From IMG/VR virus record IMGVR_UViG_3300021962_000058, positions 1 through 64,000 of that record: 64,000 nt of DNA. One strand, written 5' to 3'. Positions 3,015 to 25,198 of the stretch are shown in pieces; position 1 is the first letter of the stretch; every line of letters begins with the position of its first letter. The position numbers and the translations under genes are program-made. Source of the DNA: a virus. The notes below the pieces were generated by a model, which saw nothing but the letters and a program-made list of their open reading frames with translations, ran no database searches and was not told the DNA's origin.

Positions 3015-3073
3015 ATAGACGGTTCGCATACTGGAACATATCACTTGATTATGTGTTCTGCCTGTGTTATGAT
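3015..3073 (+). promoter_or_regulatory. box-type promoter (degenerate 24-bp palindrome, TTGATT-17-TATGAT)
   Basis: ATAGACGGTT-CGCA-TACTGGAACA ends 29 nt before TATGAT at 3068. Confidence 0.6.
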
Positions 3074-3095
3074 ACTTTCATAGATAAAAACAAAA

Positions 3096-3299
3096 ATGAA
3101 CTTTCTACTGCCATTATGGTATAAGTTTCAAGAGTGGAGATATGAAAGAAAATGTCTCAAACATCTTGGTATAAAACCCACAAAGATGTATGTAAGTAAA
3201 GAAGCATATGATGCTCTTATAGAAGCAATCAATAAACCACCAGAATATAACGAAAAGATTGCTAGATTATTAAGTCGTAAAGCACCTTGGGATGATTAA
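3096..3299 (+). CDS. hypothetical phage protein
   Basis: 67-aa ORF directly downstream of promoter. Confidence 0.65.
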   Translation: MNFLLPLWYKFQEWRYERKCLKHLGIKPTKMYVSKEAYDALIEAINKPPEYNEKIARLLSRKAPWDD

Positions 3300-3455
3300 A
3301 ATGTTTGAAACTAAAACATCTTGGTGGTTTGAAAAACAATACCGCAAAACTTGGTTAAATCGTGCTCAATCCAAACTAGAAGAAGTTGTAGAACGACACG
3401 ATGATGATATTGAACAGATTGGGCGAAGAATTCGTTATTTGGAGGATGAACTACC

Positions 3456-3671
3456 GTGACTACTGAACTACCTGAACTCTTTCAACAAACTTGTGACAAA
3501 CTGTATGATCGCCATCATTATAAGTTGGTGTATACTAATGGTCAGTCAGTCATTCTAGATGATTATATGGATGTACAAGCCCATTGGTTTCAAACACCAG
3601 CACAGTTTTTAAGTCACGTTGAAGTTCTTGACATTCCCCAAAAGAAAAGGAAAAGGAAGGGATTCCAATGA
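3456..3671 (+). CDS. hypothetical phage protein
   Basis: 71-aa ORF, coupled to a 52-aa ORF at 3301..3459. Confidence 0.7.
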   Translation: MTTELPELFQQTCDKLYDRHHYKLVYTNGQSVILDDYMDVQAHWFQTPAQFLSHVEVLDIPQKKRKRKGFQ

Positions 3672-3862
3672 TTTCTATCTACGATATTATGCACGATGAG
3701 CAACGTTATGGTTGGGTTGTAGACAAACGCTATGACTGGATTAATATGCTCACTAAAATGCAAAGGAACAACCCTCTTCGTTTCAAAGAGTTTAAGTATT
3801 CGCAAGAAACTATCTATCATTACTTAGATAGACTACAACAAGAACAAAATCTCTATGACTGA
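3668..3862 (+). CDS. hypothetical phage protein
   Basis: 64-aa ORF, ATGA coupling. Confidence 0.7.
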   Translation: MISIYDIMHDEQRYGWVVDKRYDWINMLTKMQRNNPLRFKEFKYSQETIYHYLDRLQQEQNLYD

Positions 3863-4043
3863 CACTGGATTTGAAAGTTGGTTTGATGAACTAGAAGGAT
3901 ACTCTTTTCGTTCTGAAAGATTTTATGATGACTTTGACTATGCAGCGAAGACAGGAGATTATAAAAAGATTATCAAGTGGTTGCAGGCTGCATATGATGT
4001 GGGATATAATGATGGACAACGACTTTATGGAGGAACAGAATGA
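3855..4043 (+). CDS. hypothetical phage protein
   Basis: 62-aa ORF. Confidence 0.7.
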   Translation: MTDTGFESWFDELEGYSFRSERFYDDFDYAAKTGDYKKIIKWLQAAYDVGYNDGQRLYGGTE

Positions 4044-4537
4044 ACTTTACCCCTGAACAATATAAACTAATCTTTACTGCTGTTCGTCGATATCAGTTTG
4101 AAAAGACTATTCTAGATAGTAAAGAATATCATGAATGTGGTGAAATACTTGACGAACTATTTAATGTAGTATACACACAAAAACAAGAACAAGTGACTTA
4201 AAATGCAATTTTCAAACGAAGAGATTGAACTTCTCATTGATGCCTCTTGGAGGCGGCAGAGGTGCTTTATTGCAGGGGATAGACGTTTCAAGGAGTATGG
4301 TGCTATACTGGATAAGTTACGGGCAATGATCCCGTACAACTACGTAATTGATGAGTTTAAGTGATGGATTACACCGAAGAATTTCCTTTTGATCAGTTTC
4401 CCTGGAAGTTGATCCATAAAGATGGAAAAGAAACACGCAAATGTTACTTTCAAACTGAAGAACATCGCAAGAAACACATTGAACGCTACAACCTTAAAAA
4501 GAAAGACATTCAATTGAGTTATAAGTATGACAACTAG
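4040..4537 (+). CDS. three small hypothetical proteins (4040..4201, 4203..4364, 4364..4537)
   Basis: Hand-translated 53, 53 and 57 aa ORFs tiling the + strand. Confidence 0.6.
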
Positions 4538-4635
4538 AACTTTTATCGACAAGAATGGAAATTCCTGGGAATGGGAAGAAACTCCTGAAACTATTGAGGC
4601 ACTGAAACAACTTCATGAAACTGTAAAGCAAGTAA

Positions 4636-4845
4636 ATGAGCGAAAAGAAACTAATTGACGAATGCTTCTATGTGGAGCAAAAAAGATATGGTCTTTGGGA
4701 TTCAACCGATCTTGAAGGTAAAGGACTGATCACATCTTTGACCGAAGAGGAATGTGTGAGAGCAACACGATTTTACTTAAAAGGACTCCAAGAGGGTTGG
4801 CCTGAAACTAAAACTTATGAAGGTCAAGTAGGTGGAAAACTCTGA
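4636..4845 (+). CDS. hypothetical phage protein
   Basis: 69-aa ORF. Confidence 0.7.
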   Translation: MSEKKLIDECFYVEQKRYGLWDSTDLEGKGLITSLTEEECVRATRFYLKGLQEGWPETKTYEGQVGGKL

Positions 4846-4992
4846 TTATCCATATCACGTTTTAGATCCTACTACTCCTTGGTATGAGTGGTTGTGTTAC
4901 TGTGAAATTTGTCATCAATTGAATGTTCCCAATCAACCAAAGTGGCAAAGATATGCTGCTTATCGTAACTATTTGAAAGAAGTCGGTGTTTT

Positions 4993-5208
4993 ATGAAAAA
5001 ATTCATTGAATGGTTTCTTTCTCCATCAATCGAACCAATCCTAGAAATTGATGATGTATATTCTAAACTTATTGAACTAGAAAATCGTATCATTAAGTTA
5101 GAAGAGGAAAATGTAGAAACTACAAACGAACTCTATCGTATGGAAAATTCTCTTGATGCTCGCATAGATATTCTTGCCGAGCATTGTAGGATTGATTACG
5201 ATGTATGA
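4993..5208 (+). CDS. hypothetical coiled-coil protein
   Basis: Heptad pattern LIELENRIIKLEEE. Confidence 0.7.
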   Translation: MKKFIEWFLSPSIEPILEIDDVYSKLIELENRIIKLEEENVETTNELYRMENSLDARIDILAEHCRIDYDV

Positions 5209-5380
5209 ACTAGATGACTTTGAAAAAGCACTTGCACATTTTGGAACAAGAGTAGATGTTATCATAGCAATGGAAATGGGGGGAAAGTTTGATGCTGAAA
5301 CTGCTTACAAAAATATTAAGATGGAACTCAAAGAACTCAAAAGAATTCGAAAGTCCATCAAAAAAGACAAGGATTTGTGA
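5200..5380 (+). CDS. hypothetical phage protein (start approximate, MYELDDF)
   Basis: Track ORF 5174..5380; internal ATG overlapping previous stop is more plausible. Confidence 0.6.
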
Positions 5381-5495: not shown

Positions 5496-5642
5496 TGGAA
5501 GACACGCTTAAAATAACACAGAATGAGGATGGATCATTCACGATGGACTGGGATCCAAAAGACCCAAAGTGGGAATGGTTAAATGGGTTGACTTCCAAAG
5601 AAATCCAGGTTATTATGGAGGACGCAATCAAAGACTACATCA

Positions 5643-7480: not shown

Positions 7481-7512
7481 AAAAAATAAATATATCATCA
7501 CGCTACAAAACT

Positions 7513-7757: not shown

Positions 7758-7904
7758 ATGTCTAGATTCACTGATCTACTTCAAGAACCAACTCCTGCAC
7801 CAGAACCAACACCAGCACCAGAACCTGTAAAGGTTAATAATGTTGTAGAGTTGAAACCAAAGGCAGAAGTTAAGACTACAAAGAAAAATTTCACAATGGA
7901 CTGA
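7758..7904 (+). CDS. small Pro-rich hypothetical protein
   Basis: Hand-translated 48 aa (EPTPAPEPTPAPEP); AATAAATA at 7728-7735. Confidence 0.6.
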   Translation: MSRFTDLLQEPTPAPEPTPAPEPVKVNNVVELKPKAEVKTTKKNFTMD

Positions 7905-7963
7905 GTGACAGTCTAAAAAGTGGCACAAGGGGCATCCTGGTTCGCTGGGGTGCCCCTTATAAT
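7904..7963 (+). promoter_or_regulatory. box-type promoter with GC hairpin
   Basis: AGTGACAGTC-TAAA-AAGTGGCACA, hairpin AGGGGCATCC...GGGGTGCCCCT, TATAAT 30 nt after the box. Confidence 0.8.
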
Positions 7964-7988: not shown

Positions 7989-8405
7989 ATGGCAACCCGC
8001 TCCCGCATTGGTATCGAACTCGCTGATGGTTCTATTCTTTCTGCTTATTCTCATTGGGATGGTTATCCTGAGTGGATGGGACGCATTCTTCGCACTCACT
8101 ATAACACCAAAGAGAAAGTAGCAGAACTGATTGACGGTGGTGATATGAGTTCTCCTTGGACTGAGGATCGTTGGAACAGTGAGACTAAGGCACAAGAATA
8201 CGGTCCTCAATACTATTCTCAGCGTGGTGAAGATTGCCCTCCCCGCCACGATGCCGACCTCTGTGAGTATCTTCTGCCTGCTAATGGTGAAGAGTATCAC
8301 TATGTCTTCCGCAATGGTGAATGGGTGTGCTACAATATGAACTGCTATGTGGAAAGCAAACTTCCCGAAATCGTTGAAATTCCTTCCGCTGCTCTTGCTG
8401 TTTGA
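7989..8405 (+). CDS. conserved phage hypothetical protein (TRS.IG...HWDGYP type)
   Basis: 138-aa ORF after promoter. Confidence 0.8.
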   Translation: MATRSRIGIELADGSILSAYSHWDGYPEWMGRILRTHYNTKEKVAELIDGGDMSSPWTEDRWNSETKAQEYGPQYYSQRGEDCPPRHDADLCEYLLPANGEEYHYVFRNGEWVCYNMNCYVESKLPEIVEIPSAALAV

Positions 8406-9100: not shown

Positions 9101-9850
9101 ATGCAACCACGCATTTATACATATAAGATTACCTTTGAAGAGGTTCCTTACTATTACTACGGAAGTAAAAAGGAAAGATATTATAATCAACCATACTGGG
9201 GTTCTCCAAAAGTAAATAAATGGTGTTGGGAACTTTATACGCCGAAGAAACAAATATTAGAAGTATTTGATTATACTGATGATGGATATGAAGAATGTAG
9301 AAGAGTAGAGAATAGATTAATCAAACCAGTTCTTAATGATATTTGGTGTTTAAATGAAATGTGTGGAGGAACTTATTCAACTAAAATATTGAAAGAAAGT
9401 GGAAAGAAAGGTGGAAATAAGGCAAAAGAACTCGGTGTAGGTATTTGTGGATTTACAAGAGAACAAAGAAGTGCAAATGGTAGAAAAACAAAAGAACTTG
9501 GTGTAGGAATATATTCTATGACTACAGAAGAACGAAGAAAAATTGCTAAAAAGAATGAAGAGGGCAGAATTGGAATATTTGCATTAACTCCAGAAGAAAG
9601 GTCATTTAATTCATCACAATCTGGTAAAATATCTGGAAAAGTTTGTTTTGAAAAAAGAGTTGGAATTTTTGGAATGGATTCTTCTGATAAAAAAGAAGCA
9701 GAAAGAAAAGGAGGGAGAGTAACAGCATTAAACTTAAATTCTCAAAAATGGATGTGCCTTGAAACTGGACATATTACAACTTCTGGACCTTTAACAAGAT
9801 ATCAAAAAACAAGAAATATAGATACATCCAAAAGAATAAGGTTGCAATAA
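9101..9850 (+). CDS. free-standing GIY-YIG (Seg-like) homing endonuclease
   Basis: IYTYKI...YYYGS, YWGS, E..L, LN; C-terminus WMCLETG...RYQK.R.IDTSKR shared with 2352..3011. Confidence 0.75.
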   Translation: MQPRIYTYKITFEEVPYYYYGSKKERYYNQPYWGSPKVNKWCWELYTPKKQILEVFDYTDDGYEECRRVENRLIKPVLNDIWCLNEMCGGTYSTKILKESGKKGGNKAKELGVGICGFTREQRSANGRKTKELGVGIYSMTTEERRKIAKKNEEGRIGIFALTPEERSFNSSQSGKISGKVCFEKRVGIFGMDSSDKKEAERKGGRVTALNLNSQKWMCLETGHITTSGPLTRYQKTRNIDTSKRIRLQ

Positions 9851-9908
9851 GTGACACTTGAATAACTGGCACAAGACCCGCCACACAAGGCGGGTTTTTT
9901 GCTATAAT
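9850..9908 (+). promoter_or_regulatory. box-type promoter overlapping a terminator-like hairpin
   Basis: AGTGACACTT-GAAT-AACTGGCACA; ACCCGCC/GGCGGGT plus T-tract; TGCTATAAT 29 nt after the box. Confidence 0.8.
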
Positions 9909-9931: not shown

Positions 9932-10057
9932 ATGGATCTCTCTGAAATGTTGGATGAACTGCGGGAAATTGAAATCTACGGATCAGAACCATCAGATTGG
10001 ATGGGATATATGGGTTCTGACGACTATTGGGTGCCAGATGAGGAACTGGCATACTGA
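9932..10057 (+). CDS. small acidic hypothetical protein (41 aa)
   Basis: Hand-translated MDLSEMLDEL...VPDEELAY; GAGGA RBS. Confidence 0.65.
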   Translation: MDLSEMLDELREIEIYGSEPSDWMGYMGSDDYWVPDEELAY

Positions 10058-10089
10058 CTACCTTAGGGGCGCTTCTGTGCCCCTATAAT
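10030..10089 (+). promoter_or_regulatory. box-type promoter
   Basis: GGTGCCAGAT-GAGG-AACTGGCATA; TATAAT 30 nt after the box. Confidence 0.8.
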
Positions 10090-10110: not shown

Positions 10111-10551
10111 ATGACTACCACCTTCGCTGACTACTCCGCCCAAGCAGAGGCACGGAAGAACATCGCAGAGGCAGTTCTGGGGCACACCTACGCTCTCTGT
10201 GAGGCACTTCGTCAGAACTTCATTGATTACAGCATCAAGTCTCATCAAAAGTTTGTGGATGATATTGATACTCACGAATACCATCAAAAGCAGATTGCTA
10301 AATTGAAAGAGGGTATTTGTGGTTATGAGTTCTACCCTGAGACTGGTCGCAAGTATCACAAGATCATTATGGTTGCCAATGGTTCCCGCAGTGTTAGTTG
10401 CTTTGTAGACAAGAAAACTGGAGAGATTTATAAAGCAGCGTCGTTTCGTGCTCCTGCCAAAGGTGTTCGTTACGATCTTCGCCTGATCAGTGATCGTGAA
10501 TGGTTGCTTGAAAATGCAGACTGGGCAGGTGCTTATCTTTACGCAAAGTGA
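10111..10551 (+). CDS. conserved phage hypothetical protein
   Basis: 146 aa; GRKYHKI...FVDKKTGEIYKAAS..APAKGVRY pattern. Confidence 0.8.
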   Translation: MTTTFADYSAQAEARKNIAEAVLGHTYALCEALRQNFIDYSIKSHQKFVDDIDTHEYHQKQIAKLKEGICGYEFYPETGRKYHKIIMVANGSRSVSCFVDKKTGEIYKAASFRAPAKGVRYDLRLISDREWLLENADWAGAYLYAK

Positions 10552-10695: not shown

Positions 10696-11172
10696 ATGTC
10701 TTACATCACAACTTCTGGATATGGTTATCGCAAACTCCTCTGTGAGGATGTTACCACTTGGTTTCTGAATAAGTTTCTTCCACGTCATAAGATTGATGTA
10801 GAGATTCTACATCGTGGTCTGGTAAGAGAGGGAGTTTATGGGTATTGTGATTTTATTGATGATTACAGGCGTCCAAGAATGTTTTTGATTGAACTTCATA
10901 CTCATATGGAGGAGGAGTTGTATATAAAAACTCTTTTGCACGAACTGACCCATCTGCGTCAGTGGGTGGTCGGTTCACTGCGGTTGCGTCGTGGAAAAAT
11001 GTGTTATGGAAAAGAAAGTGTCGAAGATTATGAGTATTGGTATCAACCACACGAAATAGAGGCAAGAGAACAAGAAGAAACGCTATATCTGGAGTACTTA
11101 TTTGATAAAAATGGGTGGACGGTTCCACAAGTGGCACAGTTCTTTGGTAACCGCTTGTGCTCTGCCGTATAA
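10696..11172 (+). CDS. putative HExxH zinc metallopeptidase
   Basis: TLLHELTHLRQW and downstream PHEIEA motif. Confidence 0.7.
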   Translation: MSYITTSGYGYRKLLCEDVTTWFLNKFLPRHKIDVEILHRGLVREGVYGYCDFIDDYRRPRMFLIELHTHMEEELYIKTLLHELTHLRQWVVGSLRLRRGKMCYGKESVEDYEYWYQPHEIEAREQEETLYLEYLFDKNGWTVPQVAQFFGNRLCSAV

Positions 11173-11173
11173 T
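11115..11173 (+). promoter_or_regulatory. box-type promoter inside 3' end of upstream gene
   Basis: GTGGACGGTT-CCAC-AAGTGGCACA; TATAAT 29 nt after the box. Confidence 0.75.
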
Positions 11174-11197: not shown

Positions 11198-11698
11198 ATG
11201 ACTCCCGAAGAACGCTATCAGGCACTCTATGAGGAGATGTATCAACTCTGTGAAGAACAGGGTTGGGGTGATCCTTTCAGTTATGCACGTTCCCGTGAGA
11301 TTCATATGGCGGGAGTGTTGGGTCATCGCATTGCGGAAGATTATAGTGGTGCCGATGCTTATGATGAAGATGGTGGTGCAGAGTATAAGTCTACTATTGC
11401 AAATTCTATCAATGCAACTTATAATGGTATTAGTGTTCAAAACACTTGGGAAGAACAAGAGCGTTATCTGATTGAAGATAAGATTGGTAAGTACAAGAAC
11501 CACTATTATGCACGTTATGAAGGTGGTAAGATTGTGGAAGTGTGGAAGTTAGATTGTAACGATGTTCTTGCTATTATTCTTCCCAAAGCAAAGAAACAGT
11601 ATCCTCAGAAAAAGAATGGCAATGCAAAAGATCCTCGCATTGGCATTACTATCTCTAAAAAGGAGATCTATGCAGTTGGCAAATGTATCATTGGTTGA
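11198..11698 (+). CDS. putative PD-(D/E)XK restriction-type endonuclease
   Basis: E...GADA-x7-EYKST catalytic-like pattern; ATG 11198 follows promoter and AAGGA RBS; adjacent to MTase. Confidence 0.6.
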   Translation: MTPEERYQALYEEMYQLCEEQGWGDPFSYARSREIHMAGVLGHRIAEDYSGADAYDEDGGAEYKSTIANSINATYNGISVQNTWEEQERYLIEDKIGKYKNHYYARYEGGKIVEVWKLDCNDVLAIILPKAKKQYPQKKNGNAKDPRIGITISKKEIYAVGKCIIG

Positions 11699-11701: not shown

Positions 11702-12271
11702 ATGATTGATTCCAGAAAAGTAGCATATTCTAGTGGTGGTGGAGATGAAGCATATACCCCTGCATATGGTGTAACTCCTATTCTCAAATACATCCCCAAA
11801 GATGCAAAGGTGTGGTGTCCATTTGATACCAAAGAGAGTGAGTTTGTCAAGCAGATTGGAGCACAAAATCTAGTCGTCTCCACACACATTTCAACTGGTC
11901 AAGATTTTCTTACTTACATTCCCGACTTTGAGTGGGATGTGATTGTATCTAATCCACCATTCACAAACAAGCGGAAGTTCTTTGAGCGGGCACTGTCTTT
12001 CAACAAACCATTTGCCCTGATTATGACTAACACCTGGTTGAATGATAGTGCTCCTAAGCAATTATTCAAGGATAAGGATCTACAACTGTTGATGTTTGAT
12101 AAGCGAATGAAGTTTCATAGTCCTGATGGACGCCCGAATGATAAGATCACGTTCAGTAGTAGTTACTACTGCTGGAACTTTCTACCAAAACAAATCATTA
12201 TGGAGAAACTGGATGTGCCAGCTTCCAAACTGGCACAACGCAGTCCAAGTGAGGCAGTGCTGCCCCTATAA
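11702..12271 (+). CDS. DNA amino-methyltransferase (N6-A/N4-C)
   Basis: DEAYTP, WCPFD, GQDF and catalytic SNPPF motifs. Confidence 0.85.
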   Translation: MIDSRKVAYSSGGGDEAYTPAYGVTPILKYIPKDAKVWCPFDTKESEFVKQIGAQNLVVSTHISTGQDFLTYIPDFEWDVIVSNPPFTNKRKFFERALSFNKPFALIMTNTWLNDSAPKQLFKDKDLQLLMFDKRMKFHSPDGRPNDKITFSSSYYCWNFLPKQIIMEKLDVPASKLAQRSPSEAVLPL

Positions 12272-12272
12272 T
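12214..12272 (+). promoter_or_regulatory. box-type promoter inside 3' end of MTase gene
   Basis: TGTGCCAGCT-TCCA-AACTGGCACA; TATAAT 29 nt after the box. Confidence 0.8.
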
Positions 12273-12298: not shown

Positions 12299-12466
12299 AT
12301 GAAGACCTACCGAATGCTGATTGAGTATTGGGTTCCTGATGAGGATGAGAATCTCTTTGAAGAGAAGATCATTCAGTCCCGTTCTTCTTGTGGTAAGATT
12401 GCAGATGATTATCTGGCACAAGATCGTACTAATCTCATTCGCTCTGTTGAAGTCACTCCTGTTTGA
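12299..12466 (+). CDS. hypothetical protein (55 aa)
   Basis: Hand-translated MKTYRMLIEYWVPDEDE...; directly after promoter. Confidence 0.65.
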   Translation: MKTYRMLIEYWVPDEDENLFEEKIIQSRSSCGKIADDYLAQDRTNLIRSVEVTPV

Positions 12467-13590: not shown

Positions 13591-13794
13591 ATGAAAGAAG
13601 TTAATGTAAGTTTAAATGTTCATGAAATCGGTGTGATTTTATCTGCACTACAAGAACTGAATCTACGTGAGGAAAATAGAATTGCACGTGAATATGGAAG
13701 TGTACCTGCACTGTATGCAAAACTTCACGATCTCTGGGAGCAGATGGACACTTCCGAAACTGGTCTACGGTACGATGTGGTGCCGTCGTTCTGA
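13591..13794 (+). CDS. hypothetical phage protein
   Basis: ORF ending in a box-encoded tail. Confidence 0.7.
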   Translation: MKEVNVSLNVHEIGVILSALQELNLREENRIAREYGSVPALYAKLHDLWEQMDTSETGLRYDVVPSF

Positions 13795-13802
13795 CCTATA
13801 CT
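13744..13802 (+). promoter_or_regulatory. box-type promoter (degenerate)
   Basis: ATGGACACTT-CCGA-AACTGGTCTA; TATACT 29 nt after the box. Confidence 0.65.
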
Positions 13803-13827: not shown

Positions 13828-14031
13828 ATGAAACCCATTTCATTCACGTCTGGGCAACTGCTGGATCTGATTGCTCTTCTTGAAGAGAAAGAGGATGCTC
13901 TCTATGATGCAGAAGACAAGGGACTCTCCGCTTACTATATGCAAATGGGAGTGCAGTTTCAGCGAATGTATGATCGTCTGCAAAGTCTTCCTGGTGAAAA
14001 GCGTGTTGTCGAACTTGTAGCACAACAATGA
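13828..14031 (+). CDS. hypothetical phage protein
   Basis: 67-aa ORF after promoter. Confidence 0.7.
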   Translation: MKPISFTSGQLLDLIALLEEKEDALYDAEDKGLSAYYMQMGVQFQRMYDRLQSLPGEKRVVELVAQQ

Positions 14032-15806: not shown

Positions 15807-16022
15807 ATGAAGAATAGAGTTATCTACTATCCTTCATTAATCCTAATCAGTATTGTATCGTTTGCGTTAGGATCAAATGTATACAGAGAGTCAATCATTA
15901 ATGATACTTTGAAACTGTGTAATCAAAAGCAATTAGAGTGTAAGTTCAAGTATGATATGGTGATGTATCAAGAGACAGGTAAAGTACCTTATACTCAACC
16001 TACTAAAGATAAAACCAAATAA
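15807..16022 (+). CDS. small membrane protein
   Basis: N-terminal TM helix; ATG 15807. Confidence 0.6.
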   Translation: MKNRVIYYPSLILISIVSFALGSNVYRESIINDTLKLCNQKQLECKFKYDMVMYQETGKVPYTQPTKDKTK

Positions 16023-16812
16023 AACCTTTCCAGGTATAGCGACCTTTACTTTTTAATGCTTTTGTAAGACCAGTTCCTCTACTATTACCACCAACTTTTC
16101 TAATAGCATCAGCAATACTCTCAAAGTGATATTCTTCCCAAGTTACTTTATTGATAGCTTTAACTGCTTTTTTCTTACTTTTAGTTTCAAGTAATTTCCA
16201 TCTGTAACCATAACACTTATATCCCTTACGAGCAGATAAAAGGATATTGCTATTTTTATTACGGTCACCAGCAACTTCTTCTGCTGCATCACGAGCATTA
16301 TCCCATTCTCTGATTTCACCAGTTTCTATATTCAGTCCTTGTATCTTTATACCACAGTGCTTACCGTTACCTCTATTTTCATCTGTTAAGAATCCCCATG
16401 GTTGATATTTCGCTTTTTCGGTTAAAGTAGTTTTTATATTATTAACCTCTTCATCTGTTCTTTCTCTATTAGATGCTATTTCACTTAATTTTTGTTTTGT
16501 TTCATTACTGAATACTGGACGACTTCCACCGCTTGTTGCATTATAACCTTCTGCACTTTCAAAGGTATTGTATTTTTCTATCCAGTATTGTTCTTTTTCA
16601 TCTAATAAACTTTCATCACATTCATCTATTTCTTTAATCATGAAGTTGTGATTACCATACTTACGCATAGCACGATGTAATGGTTTATCACTCATTCTTA
16701 ATGCTTCTTGTATGTGTTGTTGCCACCTTTTATTCATACCTTGGGTGGTCTGTCCAACATATTTGTGTCCGTTCTGTTTATTGACGATGAGATAGATGAT
16801 TCCTTGGGACAT
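16003..16812 (-). CDS. GIY-YIG homing endonuclease with NUMOD-type C-terminal DNA-binding repeats
   Basis: GIIYLI.N..NG.KYVGQT, R, H, E, GYN; two F/W.S..DA...KG..W repeats; the only long minus-strand gene. Confidence 0.88.
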   Translation of the reverse strand: MSQGIIYLIVNKQNGHKYVGQTTQGMNKRWQQHIQEALRMSDKPLHRAMRKYGNHNFMIKEIDECDESLLDEKEQYWIEKYNTFESAEGYNATSGGSRPVFSNETKQKLSEIASNRERTDEEVNNIKTTLTEKAKYQPWGFLTDENRGNGKHCGIKIQGLNIETGEIREWDNARDAAEEVAGDRNKNSNILLSARKGYKCYGYRWKLLETKSKKKAVKAINKVTWEEYHFESIADAIRKVGGNSRGTGLTKALKSKGRYTWKGFIWFYL

Positions 16813-16991
16813 TTATATTTTAGATAACACTTTTAATATTTTATATATTCTTTATGTTATTTTATATTATTATTTTGGTTAATTTGTGATTAAATATTTT
16901 GTAATTCTCAATAAGGTTTTGTAATTGATAATAAATAACAGGTTTTATTGAGAATAATAAGAAAATGCTGAGTCTTGTTGCAGCCTTTGCC

Positions 16992-17020
16992 AGCGTAGCA
17001 TAAGACACGCAGTTTGTCAA
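16992..17020 (-). promoter_or_regulatory. leftward sigma70 promoter
   Basis: Minus strand TTGACA-17-TACGCT with extended TG. Confidence 0.7.
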
Positions 17021-17060
17021 GTCCACCGCCCGCGAAAATGCCACGAGACCCACACAAAAA

Positions 17061-17345
17061 CTCGACGAGATCCATACTAGACTTATGAGATCTCGACGAG
17101 ACCTTATGTTACGAGATGCACATAATTCTCGACGAGAGTACATATATATTGGTATGATTCTCGACGAGACACACATCTAGACTAGATTGTATCTTGTCGA
17201 GTTTTATGGTATAATACGAAAGCGTTCACACAATCTCGACGAGCTTATGTACGACGATTACGATCTCGACTATACGTATAGTAACGATTATGTAGATCTC
17301 GACGAGGACACATACCACGAGTATGGTATAACGGATCTCGACGAG
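17061..17345. repeat. seven copies of CTCGACGAG (iteron-like array)
   Basis: Exact copies at 17061, 17092, 17128, 17160, 17235, 17298, 17337 plus partial copies. Confidence 0.9.
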
Positions 17346-17402
17346 GATTATGCACGAGATACACAAGATTATAACGATCTTGCGTATCGTCATTATGCAT
17401 GA
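17247..17402 (+). CDS. small Asp/Tyr-rich hypothetical protein
   Basis: MYDDYDLDY...; TGGTATAAT upstream at about 17207-17215; repeats encode DLDE. Confidence 0.5.
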   Translation: MYDDYDLDYTYSNDYVDLDEDTYHEYGITDLDEDYARDTQDYNDLAYRHYA

Positions 17403-17432
17403 TATAATCTAGACACATCGCACTAGACACGT

Positions 17433-17585
17433 ATGTTAGCACAGAAGCGCCTAGTCACAGTCACACTCGACATCATGTGTTATGATGACCTGGATCTAGA
17501 CAATATTAACTGGCGAGATGTATTAGATCTCGAACCCAATGAGGATGTCCATTGTAAGATCCAGGAGCACGATATCGATTGGTAG
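17433..17585 (+). CDS. small acidic hypothetical protein (50 aa)
   Basis: Hand-translated MLAQKRLVTVTLDIMCYDDLD...DIDW. Confidence 0.55.
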   Translation: MLAQKRLVTVTLDIMCYDDLDLDNINWRDVLDLEPNEDVHCKIQEHDIDW

Positions 17586-17609
17586 TGTGCCAGTTTAAAT
17601 ATTGGCACA
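17551..17609 (-). promoter_or_regulatory. leftward box-type promoter
   Basis: Box TGTGCCAGTT-TAAA-TATTGGCACA 17586-17609; minus-strand TACAAT (17551-17556) 29 nt away. Confidence 0.6.
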
Positions 17610-17663
17610 GTACTTCATTCTCAATAAGCAACCCCTTATTGAGAATTCTAATATTTCATAATA

Positions 17664-17727
17664 TTTCAAGGCAGGGGGAGTGGCGATGTATTTTCGTCGG
17701 CAGGGATACCCTTCCCCTCATTGAATT
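17664..17727 (-). ncRNA. candidate leftward non-coding RNA, copy A
   Basis: Follows minus-strand promoter; homologous to 22756-22820; no credible ORF. Confidence 0.5.
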
Positions 17728-17733
17728 TCTTAT

Positions 17734-17830
17734 AAGATAGCAGGCGGCCGACCCCAATTGCAAGGGGTCTTGTGCCAGTTCTTCTAGTGGCACAATGTTG
17801 CCCCAAAGCACCCTGATCGGGGTTTATGTT
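17734..17830. promoter_or_regulatory. bidirectional box-type promoter
   Basis: Box 17771-17794; rightward TATGTT at 30 nt; leftward TTGCAA-18-TATCTT with the -10 at 31 nt. Confidence 0.75.
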
Positions 17831-17854: not shown

Positions 17855-18058
17855 ATGATTTTCATCACTTACCCCGATCACGGTTGTGTATACACTCTGT
17901 CGCAGGAAGATGGGGATGAGTTGTATTATGCTCCAATCTACCAGAACGGTAGTATTAATCTAGAAGAATTTGCACCCGTTGATTTAGATTCAGCAGACAT
18001 GGATCAGATGGAATTGTTTGACATTCGTAACCGCCTGGTGGAGATGTGCCAGATCTAG
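17855..18058 (+). CDS. hypothetical phage protein
   Basis: ATG 17855 follows promoter leader. Confidence 0.7.
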   Translation: MIFITYPDHGCVYTLSQEDGDELYYAPIYQNGSINLEEFAPVDLDSADMDQMELFDIRNRLVEMCQI

Positions 18059-18129
18059 AAGTGGCACACGGGCACTTTACAAGTGCCCTCATCCGTTCTA
18101 CATTACATTCGTTCCTGAGGGATTCACCA

Positions 18130-18258
18130 ATGTTTGATGAGATGTGGCAGGAGATTCAAGATGCTCCTGGTGAGATCTTTGACATTCCCGAACTTCGTGA
18201 TCTGGATGATGACAAGTTCGATTACAATGAGTACATTCTCTCCAACATTGATTACTGA
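18130..18258 (+). CDS. small acidic protein
   Basis: MFDEMWQEIQD...; ATG after promoter. Confidence 0.65.
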   Translation: MFDEMWQEIQDAPGEIFDIPELRDLDDDKFDYNEYILSNIDY

Positions 18259-18678: not shown

Positions 18679-18866
18679 TGATGAACCGCACTGAACTCCA
18701 GGATCAACTCATTCAGCAGATGTTGGATGACATGGATCTCAAAACAATGACCCAACTTTGTTATGATTATCTGGATGAGGGTTATGCAAAGTATTCTGAT
18801 GAAGAATTGACCGAAGAGGTTAATCAATACTATCCTGAACTGCTGGATGGTGTGACAGTCGACTAA
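18678..18866 (+). CDS. acidic hypothetical protein
   Basis: 62-aa ORF, TGATG coupling. Confidence 0.7.
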   Translation: MMNRTELQDQLIQQMLDDMDLKTMTQLCYDYLDEGYAKYSDEELTEEVNQYYPELLDGVTVD

Positions 18867-18935
18867 GTGGCACAAGGGGGGTTGCAATGCCCCCTGATCT
18901 GGTCCATACTACTCAAGTCAACGCAACCGACCCCA

Positions 18936-19283
18936 ATGCGTAAGATCGAACAGCAAATGAACGCCGCCATTCGTGACTCCCGCGATTGGAAGTCTGGCAA
19001 CACTGAAGTTACTTTTGACTCTGAAACCAATGAGTCGAAAGTGTTCCTGCATGGCAACCACATTGCTACCATCGGTGATGACTTCGTGCAAATCTTTGAT
19101 GGTGGTTGGCAGTCTAACACCACCAAATCCCGCCTGAACGCTATTCTTCAAGATCACGGAATCAAGGGCGAATGTGTATTCCAGCGCAACTGGAATTGGT
19201 TCGTTCATAAGTTCATCGGGCAGGCAGGAACTTCTCCTGTGTTCAACGAACTCGAGTTCACCAACGGATTCGTGTTCGCCTGA
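18936..19283 (+). CDS. conserved phage hypothetical protein
   Basis: MRKIEQQM...V.LHGNHIA...GGWQS.TTKSRLNA; ATG after promoter leader. Confidence 0.8.
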   Translation: MRKIEQQMNAAIRDSRDWKSGNTEVTFDSETNESKVFLHGNHIATIGDDFVQIFDGGWQSNTTKSRLNAILQDHGIKGECVFQRNWNWFVHKFIGQAGTSPVFNELEFTNGFVFA

Positions 19284-19353
19284 CGAACTGGCACATCGGG
19301 TGCCCACACGGCACCCTCACCCCCTATACTACATTCGTTCACACAAAACACCA

Positions 19354-19920
19354 ATGGAAACCTTCCTCGAGACTTCCTTCCAGAACGTTCGTTCTTCCAA
19401 GCGTACTGATGAGTTTCATAAAGTTCTGCTGGATGAGATTCTGAACGCAAATCCTTCGTGGGCAGAGTATGATTGGAAGTTTGAGTATCAACTTCCCGTA
19501 GATGGTTTTGGTGGTACATTTGACATTGACATTGCTGGGTTTAGTAATGGTGAACTTAAGGTTGCTATTCTTGGCAAAGCACTCAACAGCAACATTAACA
19601 AAAACATCAAAAACTACGCTAACACTAGTGTAGGTGAAGCAGCACGTTTGATGTTCGCTCCTGACATTGAGATGGAAAAAGTGCTGTTCGTGAGTGTTCT
19701 TCCCCGTGTGGCACCACGTTTCAACAAAGCGGGTGAAGTTCAGGGTTTCGATGATGTCGTGAGTGCCAAAGAGCGTACCAAGATTAACCACGTTCTGCAA
19801 GCACAATACGATGGTATTGTTGAGGCAATCGACCTGTACTTTGACATTGAAGGTGTAAAGACTCTGCAAGAGTTCAACACCATTAGCATCAACAATCTGG
19901 ACACTCTGACTCTGGTGTGA
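19354..19920 (+). CDS. restriction-endonuclease-like (PD-(D/E)XK fold) protein
   Basis: FDIDIA...VAILGK...N..N.....GEA pattern; ATG after promoter leader. Confidence 0.45.
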   Translation: METFLETSFQNVRSSKRTDEFHKVLLDEILNANPSWAEYDWKFEYQLPVDGFGGTFDIDIAGFSNGELKVAILGKALNSNINKNIKNYANTSVGEAARLMFAPDIEMEKVLFVSVLPRVAPRFNKAGEVQGFDDVVSAKERTKINHVLQAQYDGIVEAIDLYFDIEGVKTLQEFNTISINNLDTLTLV

Positions 19921-20001
19921 CAGTCTGACAAGTGGAACACGGGGGGTTGAGTTCCCCCCTTCTTCGTGCCATACTACGTTCATCAGCAAACAACCCGACC
20001 A

Positions 20002-20250
20002 ATGCAACTCTACATCCTCAAAGAAGTTCTTTACGATTACACTGACGGAATGGCAGTTATCGCTGCTGAATCTATGCCTCAGTGTGAACAGATCTTTATG
20101 GAAGAGTTTGGGTATTTCACTGATCGTAATGGTGAACGGGTGAAGGATGAAAAGGTACAAAAAGAGTTCAACAATGCTAAGGTTACTATCATCGAAAGCG
20201 TAGGACTTGATGAGGCAGGTATTGTAGAATACGTTTACGGTGGGGGTTGA
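20002..20250 (+). CDS. hypothetical phage protein
   Basis: MQLYIL...YVYGGG; ATG after promoter leader. Confidence 0.75.
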   Translation: MQLYILKEVLYDYTDGMAVIAAESMPQCEQIFMEEFGYFTDRNGERVKDEKVQKEFNNAKVTIIESVGLDEAGIVEYVYGGG

Positions 20251-20893: not shown

Positions 20894-21223
20894 ATGATTA
20901 CCGCAACTGAACTGCTGGACTTTCTCACCAAAGCACAAAAAGTTTCTCCTTGTGGAGCAACCTTTCGTCAAACTGATGAAGGTTATAAAATCACTCTGTA
21001 TTGTGATTGGCACGATGATGGCAATAACTATAAACAATCTATTTTCATTGACAACGAAGGTGAATCCACTTGGAATAATGGAGGAGACTATGATTTCTAC
21101 ACAATGGATAACATTTTGGATGAAATGCTTGTGAAACAACAAGAGAAAGAAATCAAAGCACAAAAGCGTAAAGAACTGATTGAATCTCTCACACCAGAGC
21201 AAAGAGAACTGCTGGGGGTGTGA
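20894..21223 (+). CDS. hypothetical phage protein
   Basis: 109 aa, ends LTPEQRELLGV; several sub-60-aa ORFs fill 20253-20890. Confidence 0.75.
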   Translation: MITATELLDFLTKAQKVSPCGATFRQTDEGYKITLYCDWHDDGNNYKQSIFIDNEGESTWNNGGDYDFYTMDNILDEMLVKQQEKEIKAQKRKELIESLTPEQRELLGV

Positions 21224-21301
21224 CAGTTGACCTAGTGGCACACACCCCCTTGTGCTGCCTTCCCATTCGTGCCATACTACGTTCATCAGCAAACAACCAC
21301 G

Positions 21302-22201
21302 ATGCAAAACAAGCACCAAGAGCACCCCGAAGATACCATCCTCACGGGTGATTTGACCGTGCTCGACTGGTTCGTGACACCTGGCACCCTGAGCGTTAAG
21401 ATTGACGGAGCACCCGCAATCGTGTGGGGGATTGATCCTGCGACTGGTACGTTCTTCGTGGGTACAAAAGCAGTATTCAACAAAAAGAAGATTCGTATTG
21501 CACACTCTCACGATGAGATTGACCAACACTATGAAGGCAACGTTGCAGACATTCTGCACACTTGCTTTGACATTCTGCCCCGTACTGAGACAATCTATCA
21601 GGCAGAGTTCATCGGGTTTGGTGGATCTGATGAGTACACTTCCAACCTGATTACGTATCAGTTCCCTGAGATTGTCACTCAAACTATTATCATCGCTCCG
21701 CATACTTGCTATTATGCTGAGAATGATCTGCGTGAGGCAGTAGCGTATCCTGATCGTGCAACTTGGAATGATACTGAAACGGTCAAGTTTGTGAAACCTG
21801 ATGCCTACATTCTGCACGGTCAAGAATCGTTCGCTGATGTAGAAGAAGTGTGCAACTTTGCCCGCCAGATGGCAACCACCTGCCAGTTCGTTTCTAACAC
21901 CGAAGCGGCAAAGATTAAAGTTGCCATTAACGCTTGCATCCGTGAGCAACGTGAGATCGAAGATGATGCATTTGGATGTGATCCTAACCTGATTCGTTTG
22001 TGGAAACTGGTTAAATCTATCAAAGAGGATTGCCTATTCCTGTGCCGCAACAATGGTCCCGCAGCATACATCAAACAGGACCGAATTGATGCGGAAGGTT
22101 ACACAATGACCAATGAGTTTGGTATGTTCAAACTGGTGAAGCGTGAAGTGTTCTCCTACCACAACTTCACCAGCGGACGCTTTCAGTGTACCAGTGCCTG
22201 A
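21302..22201 (+). CDS. conserved T4-like phage protein with ligase/nucleotidyltransferase-like motifs
   Basis: KIDG, YQAEF, EGY and KLVK motifs; ATG 21302 after promoter leader. Confidence 0.65.
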   Translation: MQNKHQEHPEDTILTGDLTVLDWFVTPGTLSVKIDGAPAIVWGIDPATGTFFVGTKAVFNKKKIRIAHSHDEIDQHYEGNVADILHTCFDILPRTETIYQAEFIGFGGSDEYTSNLITYQFPEIVTQTIIIAPHTCYYAENDLREAVAYPDRATWNDTETVKFVKPDAYILHGQESFADVEEVCNFARQMATTCQFVSNTEAAKIKVAINACIREQREIEDDAFGCDPNLIRLWKLVKSIKEDCLFLCRNNGPAAYIKQDRIDAEGYTMTNEFGMFKLVKREVFSYHNFTSGRFQCTSA

Positions 22202-22270
22202 ACCGTCCACCTGAACCCGCAGGGGGGCACTGCTGCCCCCTATACTGATCTCAGTTCACAAGCGAACCCA

Positions 22271-22468
22271 ATGCCTAACACCGCTACCCTGATTGCCATC
22301 GGTGAAATGATCGTTAATGCATCTGAGACGTTGCCTGCAACCACCAATGCAAACATCCGCATTATGCAGGGTGAGAAGTGTGGCGCTGAGATTCTACGTC
22401 TGATCGTTCGTGATAACTTAGGTGGCGCTGCCAATGTTATCACCAATGCCCTTTGGGTCACTCGCTGA
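22271..22468 (+). CDS. hypothetical cassette protein
   Basis: 65 aa between two promoter repeats. Confidence 0.7.
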   Translation: MPNTATLIAIGEMIVNASETLPATTNANIRIMQGEKCGAEILRLIVRDNLGGAANVITNALWVTR

Positions 22469-22535
22469 ACTGGCACAGGGGGGACTGAGATCCCCCCACC
22501 AACCCCCTATACTGACTTCAGTTCAAACGAAACCA

Positions 22536-22697
22536 ATGCAACGCCTTGACGTGATTTGCCCCTCCGCTCCTTGGGAGAACACTACCACCGATGAGGATCG
22601 TGCCTGGGATCTGTGCCTGTCACTCTCTGAGGAATACGGTTACGCTCAGGTTCGCCAGAACGGTATGATCATCGGTGACTACACTGACGGTCGCTGA
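22536..22697 (+). CDS. hypothetical cassette protein
   Basis: MQRLDVICP...; ATG after leader. Confidence 0.7.
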   Translation: MQRLDVICPSAPWENTTTDEDRAWDLCLSLSEEYGYAQVRQNGMIIGDYTDGR

Positions 22698-22704
22698 ATG
22701 ATAC

Positions 22705-22736
22705 AAAAGGGGGAGCACATACGCTCCCTTTTTTTA
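22705..22736. terminator. bidirectional intrinsic terminator
   Basis: AAAAGGGGGAGC-ACATAC-GCTCCCTTTTTTT. Confidence 0.75.
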
Positions 22737-22755
22737 TACTTTTTCTTTTTTTTTA

Positions 22756-22820
22756 TTTCAAGGCTGCCCCCGTGACGACCTTTTTCGTCATCAGGGCTAC
22801 CCCGCCCCTCCTTCGCTTGT
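22756..22820 (-). ncRNA. candidate leftward non-coding RNA, copy B
   Basis: Follows minus-strand TATACT (22827-22832); homologous to 17664-17727. Confidence 0.5.
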
Positions 22821-22826
22821 GACCTT

Positions 22827-22922
22827 AGTATAAGGCCGCGGCAACCCCATACAACCCCCAGTGTGCCACTTTCTGAACTGGCACCCTACCCCCACCATCC
22901 TGCCCACTGCTGCCTCTATACT
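22827..22922. promoter_or_regulatory. bidirectional box-type promoter
   Basis: Box 22862-22885; TATACT 31 nt to the right and 29 nt to the left (minus strand). Confidence 0.8.
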
Positions 22923-22944
22923 GATCTCATCAGCAACGGACCCC

Positions 22945-23124
22945 GTGCAGACCCTCAAAGCAACCGCCATCGCCCTGCTAGTCATCACACTGGCAACCGC
23001 TGGTTACTTTGCTCTGCTTCGCAATGGCAATGCCCGCATCGAAGCGAAGTGCCAGGCATCAGGTGGGCAGGTGCTTGTGACACCTGGTCAAGTGTCCAAA
23101 TGCCTCCTGCCCGCTGCCCGCTGA
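22945..23124 (+). CDS. small membrane/secreted cassette protein
   Basis: GTG start after leader; TM helix followed by C...GG...C. Confidence 0.6.
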   Translation: MQTLKATAIALLVITLATAGYFALLRNGNARIEAKCQASGGQVLVTPGQVSKCLLPAAR

Positions 23125-23157
23125 CCCCTTATACTGATCTCAGTTCACACAACACCG

Positions 23158-23322
23158 ATGAGCACCGCAACCCGCCTCACCGCAAACCAGGCAAAGAGCG
23201 CCATCTACGATCTGGCGGATGACTTCTCATGGGAAACCGTTGCTAAGGAGATGGTCGCCCGCATGAGTGGTGATGAGGCACGGGACTTCCTCGAGGACTT
23301 CCAGCGCCTCTATGCCGACTGA
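23158..23322 (+). CDS. hypothetical cassette protein (54 aa)
   Basis: Hand-translated MSTATRLTANQAKSAIYDLADDF... Confidence 0.7.
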   Translation: MSTATRLTANQAKSAIYDLADDFSWETVAKEMVARMSGDEARDFLEDFQRLYAD

Positions 23323-23393
23323 GGCACTGGCACAAGGGGGGCACAGACCCCCCACCCCGACCCGCTACAATACTCTCACACGCAACCGATCCG

Positions 23394-23567
23394 ATGCGAA
23401 TCGAAGTCCGTTACCAGACCCCCTACAACGCTTGTGAGTGGCGGTCGCAGTGGTTCCCCACGCTGGCAGAGGCAGAGCGTATGGTAGAGTTCTACCGCTC
23501 CTGCGGATCGCCCTCTCACATCGCCCCCAGCAGCATGGCACAGTTCGCTCACCTGATTCCCGACTGA
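23394..23567 (+). CDS. hypothetical cassette protein (57 aa)
   Basis: Hand-translated MRIEVRYQTPY...F.TLAEAERMV.FY; followed by coupled ORFs 23567..23653 and 23650..23817. Confidence 0.7.
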   Translation: MRIEVRYQTPYNACEWRSQWFPTLAEAERMVEFYRSCGSPSHIAPSSMAQFAHLIPD

Positions 23568-23851
23568 TGATCACCGCAGCATTCTTCCTGATCGGTTACA
23601 CTATGGGAGCAGGGCACATCCTGCTCCTGCAACGTATCCTCCGCCACCGATGATCAACACCCTGACCCGCTCACGATCCCCTGAGTTTCACCGCGCCACA
23701 ATGCTCCGCCTGACAATCGCCGCGCTGCTACTCTGGGGGTTCTGGGGTCCACTGTACCCCGTCCGTAGTGTGACAGCAGACGTACTGTCCACTACCGCCG
23801 ACCTCCTGCGTCGCTGACCCCTTATACTGATCTCAGTTCACAAGCGAACCG

Positions 23852-24040
23852 ATGACCCGCACCAACGTCCTGCCCAACGACCTCTGCTCCATCACCCTGA
23901 CTGAGGCACAGTGGAGCACCATCCGCACCGCCGTGCTCTGCCTGGCAGTCGATTGCCGCGTTGCTGGTAAGGGTGCTGACGCAGACTACTACCTGAACGC
24001 CTACAACATCCTGCGGGATGCGATGGGGATGGACGCCTGA
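23852..24040 (+). CDS. hypothetical cassette protein
   Basis: 62 aa between repeats. Confidence 0.7.
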   Translation: MTRTNVLPNDLCSITLTEAQWSTIRTAVLCLAVDCRVAGKGADADYYLNAYNILRDAMGMDA

Positions 24041-24114
24041 GGCACTGGCACACGGGGGGTTCCACCCCCCTACCCTGACCCCTTATACTGATCTCAGTTC
24101 ACACCCGAACCCCA

Positions 24115-24543
24115 ATGACCGTCACTCTCACCGCTTCCTACCGCGACATGCTTGCCGCTGACACTGTAAGCAAGATCGACGAACTCCAGGAGGAGAACTA
24201 CTCCCTGGAGGACATGCTGGAGTTCATTGATACCTACAATGAGAATGATTTTATCGCATACTATGAGGAGTATGTGCGTTGTGGTGAAGCAATCGGTTAC
24301 GATGCTGTTGATGCTCTGATCGATGAAATGGGGTGCGTTTCTGACATTGAAGATTGTGATGAGCGTTTCCAAGGTTGGTATGAAAGTGAGGCAGATTTCG
24401 CTGAGCAGTTCTACTCTGATCTCTACGATGTCCCCTGTGCTCTGGTGATAGATTGGCAGGCAACCTACGATTCCTCCCTGCGTTACGATTTCACCTGCTG
24501 CGAGAAGTCCTACCGTCAGGTGGCAGTGTTTCGGGACTGCTGA
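24115..24543 (+). CDS. ardA: ArdA-like antirestriction (DNA mimic) protein
   Basis: Highly acidic; FQGWYESEADFAEQ...P....IDWQ....SL..DF matches the ArdA C-terminal pattern. Confidence 0.7.
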   Translation: MTVTLTASYRDMLAADTVSKIDELQEENYSLEDMLEFIDTYNENDFIAYYEEYVRCGEAIGYDAVDALIDEMGCVSDIEDCDERFQGWYESEADFAEQFYSDLYDVPCALVIDWQATYDSSLRYDFTCCEKSYRQVAVFRDC

Positions 24544-24629
24544 GGGACAGTTGAGGGGGTGGCACACTGCTGCCCCCACTGCCCCCACTCCTGCCCTTAT
24601 ACTGATCTCAGTTCACACCCGAACCACCA

Positions 24630-24890
24630 ATGGCAACCGCAACCTACCAGACCAACCTCACCGACCGCACCTACAACGGTTGGACTAACTACGAAACCTG
24701 GAACGTTGTGCTCTGGATTGAGAATGATGAGAGCATCTACAACTTCATTCAAGAGAATGACATTTGCTGCTATGAAGAACTGCTGGAAGCATTCTATGAT
24801 CACGGCAGCATTCAGACCCCTGATGGTGTGATGTGGAACGACCCTAAGATCAACCGCGCTGAGATCAACGGCGACGTGTTCGATTCCTAA
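24630..24890 (+). CDS. conserved phage hypothetical protein
   Basis: YNGWTNYETWNV.LWI.N.E motif. Confidence 0.75.
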   Translation: MATATYQTNLTDRTYNGWTNYETWNVVLWIENDESIYNFIQENDICCYEELLEAFYDHGSIQTPDGVMWNDPKINRAEINGDVFDS

Positions 24891-24958
24891 ACTGGCACAA
24901 GGGGGGCACCAACCCCCCATCCTGACCCCTTATACTGATCTCAGTTCAAACGAAACCG

Positions 24959-25129
24959 ATGACCGCTGACCTTGCTGCCTCCCTGCTCAACCGTGCCGCT
25001 AACGGTGCCGAACTGCTGAGCATCCTGGATACGATCGCCAACGACATTGCAGACGCCAACATCGCTGACTGCGCCGCCCATTATGCTCGCATCAGTGCCC
25101 AACCTACCCTGAGCGAAGTCCAGTTCTGA
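24959..25129 (+). CDS. hypothetical cassette protein (56 aa)
   Basis: Hand-translated MTADLAASLLNRAANGAELLSILD... Confidence 0.7.
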   Translation: MTADLAASLLNRAANGAELLSILDTIANDIADANIADCAAHYARISAQPTLSEVQF

Positions 25130-25198
25130 TAGTGGCACAACGGAGGGGGATGACCCTTCCCTTTTGCCTCTATACTGATCTCAGTTCAAACGACCACT

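Follow-up and report, generated by a model that had tools for sequence, protein, structure and literature searches.

T4-like cyanophages, which are among the most abundant viruses of the ocean, lack Alt/Mod, MotA and AsiA, and how their early genes are switched on without these proteins has been an open question since the first genomes were described (PMC2984593). This question is taken up here with a stretch of viral DNA (referred to as the window), which represents the first 64 kb of the 91-kb IMG/VR record IMGVR_UViG_3300021962_000058 (completeness about 42% by CheckV), and in which a 24-bp box of two arms with the consensus TGTG[AC]CA[GC]TT-N4-AA[CG]TGGCACA is repeated at a fixed distance upstream of a -10-like hexamer. 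The source of the window is a T4-like cyanomyovirus: the structural part is about 73% identical to P-SSM2, and the accessory part includes short blocks in common with several Synechococcus phages. The first 26 kb carry dozens of small open reading frames (ORFs), nearly all on the + strand. The unit of box, spacer and -10 hexamer is a real promoter cassette common to T4-like cyanobacterial viruses, and the same architecture was found at the yfr2 small-RNA genes of cyanobacteria, with the host GntR-family protein PlmA as the candidate reader.

Identification of the box cassettes

All of the 24 boxes listed in the original prediction, made from the letters of the window without database search, were present at the positions given there. 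When the consensus was searched with up to three mismatches, 24 matches were obtained over both strands, including 12 of the listed sites, while only 0.02 were expected from shuffled sequences. A matrix made from the 24 listed sites, which is circular as a detector, gave scores of 12.8-30.8 for these sites and at most 11.4 for the remainder of the 91-kb record, with the exception of two new boxes beyond the window, at 86747 and 88969, making a total of 26. As predicted, the structural half is free of the box: between 26 and 64 kb no matrix score exceeded 10.8, and clustering of the boxes in the small-ORF accessory region was clear.

The predicted rule for the -10 element was followed at 25 of the 26 sites, where a hexamer of the -10-like set (TATAAT, TATACT, CATACT, TACAAT, TATGAT, TACATT and TATGTT) starts 29-31 nt past the end of the box. 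The exception, the box at 17586, is followed on the + strand only by GAGAAT and by no ORF; on the - strand TACAAT lies at exactly 29 nt, and this box is therefore considered to face left, towards the minus-strand ORF block 16003-17442, the only one of this region. In 24 of the 26 cassettes, the start codon lies 21-26 nt downstream of the -10; in the cassette of 88969 this distance is 32 nt. The -35 had been described as usually poor, in agreement with our count: the best match to TTGACA at a spacing of 16-18 bp averaged 2.6/6, compared with 2.2/6 for shuffled spacers, and reached 4/6 or more in six of 25 sites. The spacer around -30 is unconserved, and the spacers between box and -10 are unrelated in sequence among the copies. 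The spacing to the -10 is retained even by boxes consisting of the right half only. The cassettes at 22-25 kb have a near-identical leader in common.

The cassettes are as follows; distances in nt are those from the box to the -10.

3015..3073, + strand: degenerate box, right half best; 29 nt; TATGAT; ATG at 3096
7904..7963, + strand: box; 30-nt spacer with 13-bp hairpin; TATAAT; ATG at 7989
9850..9908, + strand: box; terminator-like hairpin and T run in spacer; TATAAT; ATG at 9932
10030..10089, + strand: box; hairpin; TATAAT, the TAA of which is the stop of the upstream ORF; ATG at 10111 (DUF7717)
11115..11173, + strand: left half variant GTGGACGGTT; TATAAT; ATG at 11198
12214..12272, + strand: near-perfect box; TATAAT; ATG at 12299
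13744..13802, + strand: degenerate box; TATACT; ATG at 13828
17551..17609, - strand: box 17586-17609; 29 nt; TACAAT; faces the minus-strand ORF block including a GIY-YIG endonuclease gene
17771..17830, + strand: box; 30 nt; TATGTT; ATG at 17855
17734..17794, - strand: the 17771 box in leftward reading; 31 nt; TATCTT; followed by a conserved ORF-free unit of about 100 nt
18045..18104, + strand: box; hairpin; TACATT; ATG at 18130
18851..18910, + strand: box with upstream stop codon in its spacer; hairpin; CATACT; ATG at 18936 (Kyano_Gp96)
19272..19330, + strand: right half-site only; hairpin; TATACT; ATG at 19354
19916..19975, + strand: box, the TGA of TGTGAC being the upstream stop; hairpin; CATACT; ATG at 20002
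21219..21278, + strand: box; CATACT; ATG at 21302 (DUF6267); box conserved at the homologous place of S-SRM01
22187..22246, + strand: right half variant AACCGTCCAC; hairpin; TATACT
22454..22513, + strand: box; hairpin; TATACT
22862..22922, + strand: near-perfect box; C-rich spacer without hairpin; TATACT
22827..22885, - strand: the 22862 box in leftward reading; 29 nt; TATACT; conserved ORF-free unit of about 110 nt; two-way terminator at its end
23076..23135, + strand: within upstream frame; degenerate box; TATACT
23311..23371, + strand: strong right half; hairpin; TACAAT
23769..23828, + strand: within upstream frame; degenerate box; TATACT
24029..24089, + strand: strong right half; hairpin; TATACT; ATG at 24115
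24543..24603, + strand: box; C-rich spacer; TATACT
24876..24936, + strand: right half only; hairpin; TATACT
25116..25176, + strand: box; hairpin; TATACT; ATG at 25199
86747-86805 and 88969-89027, beyond the window: box and TATAAT, heading a 714-aa ORF (no Pfam family) and a cobS-like AAA ATPase gene

The genes served are the small ORFs of the accessory region, most of which are without known fold. The cassettes at 86747 and 88969 head larger genes, indicating that the class is not limited to tiny orphan genes. The GIY-YIG endonuclease gene (16003-16812, - strand) is downstream of the leftward promoter at 17586; no other leftward gene of the accessory region is sizeable.

Upstream reading frames either stop in or just before the box, or continue to a stop 46-56 nt into the cassette. 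The boxes at 23076 and 23769 were indeed located inside upstream frames, as the original prediction had it, and these frames stop 46 nt into the cassette. The overlap of coding and control signals is extremely tight: between 10030 and 12272, the stop codon of three upstream frames is the TAA contained in the next promoter's TATAAT, at +55 or +56 counted from the start of the box. Other frames stop at the TGA of TGTGAC or within the 4-nt spacer of the box. A G+C-rich hairpin of variable sequence was detected between dyad and -10 in 15 of the 26 spacers (z below -2), several with a T run. A terminator-like role would belong to this separate hairpin and not to the box. For annotation, the rule of a box followed by a -10 gives highly precise predictions of the transcription units of small orphan genes and of their start codons.

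The region 22000-26000 differs in composition, with 56% G+C against 31-38% across most of the phage, and is packed with one-gene cassettes having the common leader TATACTGATCTCAGTTCA, which suggests a recent duplication or an import from a high-G+C Synechococcus phage.

Conservation of the cassette among T4-like cyanophages

A scan of IMG/VR with the exact pattern identified at least 120 loci, many with several copies. Within the 120 loci listed, the right half-site is followed by TAnnnT at an offset of 29-31 in 416 of 642 occurrences; the box-to--10 spacing is fixed beyond this phage, in hundreds of sites from other phages. The left half was still strongly conserved when sites were picked by the right half and the -10 alone. 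As the loci had been retrieved by means of the full pattern, this set carries a bias for one site in each locus. Among reference genomes, the combination of half-site and -10 exceeded its reversed control in Syn9 (13 versus 2), P-SSM2 (21 versus 4) and S-PM2 (18 versus 0), but not in T4 (2 versus 4) or KVP40 (7 versus 10). The pelagiphage HTVC008M, which was meant as a negative control, gave an ambiguous result of 15 matches versus 2: its genome is AT-rich, the matches fell on both strands, and hexamers of the TATAAT type were missing. The full boxes of Syn9 are located within the small-ORF block gp60-gp93.

In 2016, Doron et al. reportedly described a novel regulatory element that governs the transcription of early genes in Syn9 and P-TIM40 and that is abundant and conserved in T4-like cyanophages; to our knowledge, no reader protein was named by them. 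The box is probably this element. Both belong to the same group, the T4-like cyanomyoviruses; the box unit is present in the small-ORF block of Syn9, in P-SSM2 and in S-PM2, and it is abundant and conserved across cyanophage contigs, as is said of the early-gene element. The promoter class is, in short, probably already known in cyanophages, and its link to PlmA is the part worth testing. Earlier accounts, Sullivan 2010 and a cyanophage review of 2010, mention only sigma-70-like, late, Pho and NtcA motifs, and no description of the motif was found in the consulted papers that cite Doron et al.

The original prediction had proposed a phage regulon and a candidate class of activator-dependent promoters. 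A regulon private to the phage cannot be maintained: the unit recurs in Syn9, P-SSM2, S-PM2 and at least 120 contigs of IMG/VR, the site copies a host promoter (see below), and a host protein is its likeliest reader. Nor is the class likely to be a new one, in view of the early-gene element of 2016. What survives is the idea of a dimeric protein near -54 that aids the host polymerase in place of a -35, in agreement with the conserved sequence, the fixed spacing and the architecture of host yfr2 promoters.

Sequence conservation within the box

Whether the two arms are conserved as sequence or as pairing partners was examined by covariation in 644 sites picked without reference to the left arm. 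At the mirror positions 8 and 17, the same top-strand base (C..C in 160 and G..G in 196 sites) was far more frequent than complementary bases (G..C in 124 and C..G in 47), and pairable combinations numbered 188 against 291 expected under independence. At position 5, A stands mispaired opposite G in about a third of the sites. Within the window, positions 8 and 17 are identical in 15 and complementary in six of the 24 boxes. Since mirror positions avoid complementarity and half-boxes keep the spacing, it is the sequence and not the pairing that is conserved; judged from this pattern, the box acts as a protein-binding site, not as a hairpin.

The box was correctly distinguished in the original prediction from the sites of two known regulators. 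With CRP (TGTGA-N6-TCACA) it disagrees in the spacing of the TGTGA arms, which is 14 bp instead of 6, and with NtcA (GTA-N8-TAC) in sequence. Three further candidates were rejected: a sigma-54 promoter (TGGCAC is present, but TTGC is missing at the required distance and the position does not fit), an UP element (rich in A/T, unlike the box) and a LexA box (rejected on sequence).

Presence of the site at host yfr2 promoters

A scan of bacterial genomes with CTGGCACA-N29-31-TATAAT gave chance matches in unrelated bacteria and no cyanobacterial locus among the matches listed. The host search was then made on 401 genomes of the cyanobacterial phylum, reached through a match in Melainabacteria. The degenerate box pattern was found in 16 of the 401 genomes, compared with five for the reversed control, and the positions left unspecified in the pattern fitted the box as well. 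At nine of the 16 host loci, the box is followed by a -10 at 30 nt and, at exactly 40 nt, by the start of a Cyano-1/Yfr2 RNA. The host RNAs after the box carry GUGUGAGGAGU, a mark of the Yfr2 family; the conserved motif of this family is complementary to that of Yfr1. Two other Rfam entries were discarded in this assignment: RF01116 is Yfr1 and RF01117 is unrelated, neither being the Yfr2 family.

The association was also observed in the opposite direction. The RNA model alone identified 29 yfr2 genes in small genomes of cyanobacteria, likely Prochlorococcus and Synechococcus, and the 120 nt upstream of each gene were scanned with the matrix derived from the window. The best match ended 40-47 nt before GUGAGGA in 26 of the 29 genes, often with scores far above those of control windows. 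The head-to-head form as in phages was found upstream of yfr2 in some picocyanobacteria (L264, L270, L272) and in many other cyanobacteria.

Pull-down with the yfr2 promoter of MED4 recovered PMM1637, a GntR-type homologue of PlmA (Lambrecht et al. 2018, PMC6191309). The protein gave a specific shift of the yfr2 promoter in the electrophoretic mobility shift assay, which was lost in the R50A mutant, and the wild-type protein raised the activity of the yfr2 and yfr4 promoters in an E. coli GFP reporter (PMC6191309). The element at these promoters, CGRE1, was published as a palindrome of 21-22 nt with GTTG or GTTA flanks (PMC6191309) and is reported at no other place in the MED4 genome (PMC6778093). 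Among the yfr2 promoters fetched here, the only sequence that fits CGRE1 is CAACTGTCAC(A)TGTGACAGTTG (L274, L278, L280, L286), in which the half-sites of the box are everted. Each of four small cyanobacterial genomes bearing yfr2 contained exactly one gene with a GntR domain, of 335-358 codons, while no GntR domain was detected in Syn9, P-SSM2, S-PM2 or the window fragment. No paper linking PlmA or CGRE1 to cyanophages was found in the literature searched.

Proposed mechanism and alternative explanations

These observations altogether suggest that the cassette would be a compact promoter for the host RNA polymerase, of a class heading small early-type genes of T4-like cyanophages. The 24-bp site of two arms, at about -66 to -43 and centered near -54, would be occupied by host PlmA (PMM1637 in MED4), as a dimer or a higher oligomer, and PlmA would activate from there. 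A free spacer of 29-31 bp would take the place of the -35, and polymerase with the primary sigma would use the -10, followed by a short leader to the start codon. The phage site would be a copy of the upstream element of host yfr2 small-RNA promoters, so that the phage would need no factor of its own to express these genes on entry. Because its sequence is free to vary, the spacer often accommodates the G+C-rich 3' hairpin of the upstream gene, which may end or stabilize the transcript, and the units may serve as recombination seams. That these promoters, lacking a -35, are activated by a host dimeric factor, with PlmA as the most likely candidate, is considered moderately probable; PlmA as the reader, activation by PlmA and the early timing of the genes are what we infer.

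Several points weigh against this reading. The everted CGRE1 would overlap a phage-type box only by its promoter-proximal half, which occupies the place of the left half, and the phage boxes do not have the published CGRE1 form, being arranged head-to-head with a 4-nt gap and no third half-site upstream. The bias for identical bases at positions 8 and 17 systematically breaks the dyad, which a simple symmetric dimer would not predict. Binding of PlmA to the phage box is putative, and early timing is presumed by analogy with Syn9. A phage-encoded reader could lie outside the record, which is about 42% complete.

Such a reader is at the center of one alternative, in which a dimeric activator encoded by the phage or delivered with the virion, or a host factor modified by the phage, controls a regulon such as a delayed-early or middle class, and the likeness to yfr2 is incidental or competitive. 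T4 offers a precedent in MotA/AsiA, though cyanomyoviruses lack these proteins (PMC2984593); besides the missing part of the record, most small ORFs are without known fold, and the two boxes before larger genes (the 714-aa ORF and the cobS-like AAA ATPase) are not necessarily immediate-early. Against these stand the same site and geometry before yfr2 in cyanobacterial genomes, from which it follows that a host reader exists, the lack of a GntR domain in the three complete box-bearing phages, and the fact that no phage protein co-occurring with the box was identified. We regard this alternative as unlikely. The box might instead be an operator for a repressor of host or phage, for example in an early-to-middle switch, as most proteins of the GntR family are repressors. 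An extra everted site extends over -35 to -10 in some marine Synechococcus yfr2 promoters (L262, L264, L269), and such a site was noted at -20 in MIT9313 (PMC6191309). Contrary to repression, PMM1637 raised the activity of the yfr2 promoter in the reporter assay (PMC6191309). A center near -54, upstream of a promoter without -35, is an activator position, and some activation should be needed because the -35 is poor in most cassettes. Repression thus appears slightly less likely still than a phage activator.

The third explanation takes the palindrome as a hairpin of RNA or single-stranded DNA, which would terminate, process or stabilize the upstream transcript or act as a hot spot of recombination, with the spacing left by copying of whole cassettes as for mobile units of the promoter-early stem-loop (PeSL) type. 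In T4-type phages, the PeSLs are composite terminator-promoter units that mediate shuffling (PMC4122927). Pairing of the arms is possible over as many as 10 bp, the box is located at the 3' end of the upstream gene, the homology with S-SRM01 continues across the 21219 cassette and is lost at the start codon that follows, and the leader is near-identical among the cassettes at 22-25 kb. Copying alone, however, does not explain the spacing, because spacer sequences are unrelated between copies; the avoidance of complementarity at mirror positions and the half-boxes with retained spacing are contrary to a hairpin, sequence rather than pairing is kept between unrelated phages and hosts, and in 15 of the 26 cassettes the terminator job would fall to the separate variable hairpin. 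This explanation is considered highly improbable.

Activation by a host dimeric factor leads to a wider proposal, that T4-like cyanophages start infection by borrowing the PlmA-yfr2 stress circuit of the host, the early promoters being PlmA-dependent copies of yfr2 promoters; this is put forward more tentatively. If it is true, early phage expression would be tied to the light and nitrogen state of the host, and dozens of phage sites could draw PlmA off yfr2. A rigid conserved promoter that copies a host promoter with known activator makes the question of early launch experimentally simple.

Leftward units without open reading frame

Two gaps without + strand ORF, at 17624-17741 (- strand) and 22715-22832 (- strand), each hold a leftward unit with the same layout: a near-perfect box on the other strand, a -10 at 29-31 nt, about 100 nt with the common core GAGGGG..GGGTA.CCCTG..GACGAAAA..CG.CAC, and a terminator hairpin. 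The unit, box and -10 included, was also present in four other cyanophage contigs (L090:3040-3157, L108:2199-2316, L004:12406-12523 on the - strand, and L065:5073-5190). No conserved ORF was found in the leftward units, and one small hairpin with a compensatory pair was noted. The two units of the window were unmatched by Cyano-1 even at E = 10 and gave no Rfam match. The leftward unit is a candidate phage small RNA and, if the borrowing of the host circuit is true, this RNA of about 100 nt could belong to the PlmA-yfr2 circuit.

The Rfam scan of the window at the gathering threshold gave nothing. A tRNA-Cys(GCA) of 86 nt, longer than the usual tRNA-Cys, was identified by ARAGORN at 26842-26927, with its anticodon at position 38; it gave no Rfam tRNA match at the gathering score.

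Comparison with known promoter systems

One close relative of the phage cassette is the yfr2 promoter. The half-site of 9-10 bp (TGTG[AC]CAGTT / AACTG[GT]CACA) is the same, the distance from the end of the box is in both about 30 nt to the -10 and about 40 nt to the RNA start, and a consensus -35 is lacking in both; in many cyanobacteria the arrangement of the yfr2 promoter is identical to that of the phage box. CGRE1 of marine picocyanobacteria differs in that it appears everted, with one half-site further upstream than in the phage box, and the right half is degenerate in high-light Prochlorococcus, whereas it is the better conserved half in the phage. The use of the site also differs: 26 sites drive protein genes in the phage, while CGRE1 is in the setting of yfr2 and was not reported elsewhere in MED4.

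The PeSL cassettes are known in T4, RB49/phi1 and KVP40/nt-1 (Arbiol 2010, PMC2839356; Comeau 2014, PMC4122927). They are composites of terminator and promoter, packed between the small ORFs of hyperplastic regions and ending at the next start codon. The box units would be composites of a similar kind, and both are plausibly seams for gene shuffling. For the box units the seam evidence consists of one border, compared with S-SRM01, where the homology runs through the 21219 cassette to the next start codon. The PeSL has -35 and -10 with N17 spacing, an AT-rich upstream region and a stem-loop upstream of the promoter (PMC4122927), whereas the box unit has no -35, a G+C-rich conserved dyad upstream, and its hairpin inside the promoter, between dyad and -10. 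The box units fall outside the PeSL definition in the -35 and deviate from it in the position of the hairpin.

The middle promoters of T4 depend on a 9-bp non-palindromic MotA box centered at -30 and require MotA and AsiA, which cyanomyoviruses are without (PMC2984593). No MotA box was found at -30 of the box units, where the spacer is unconserved, and the box described here is a 24-bp dyad near -54. The two classes are the same in principle, in that an activator site replaces the -35 upstream of a sigma-70-type -10.

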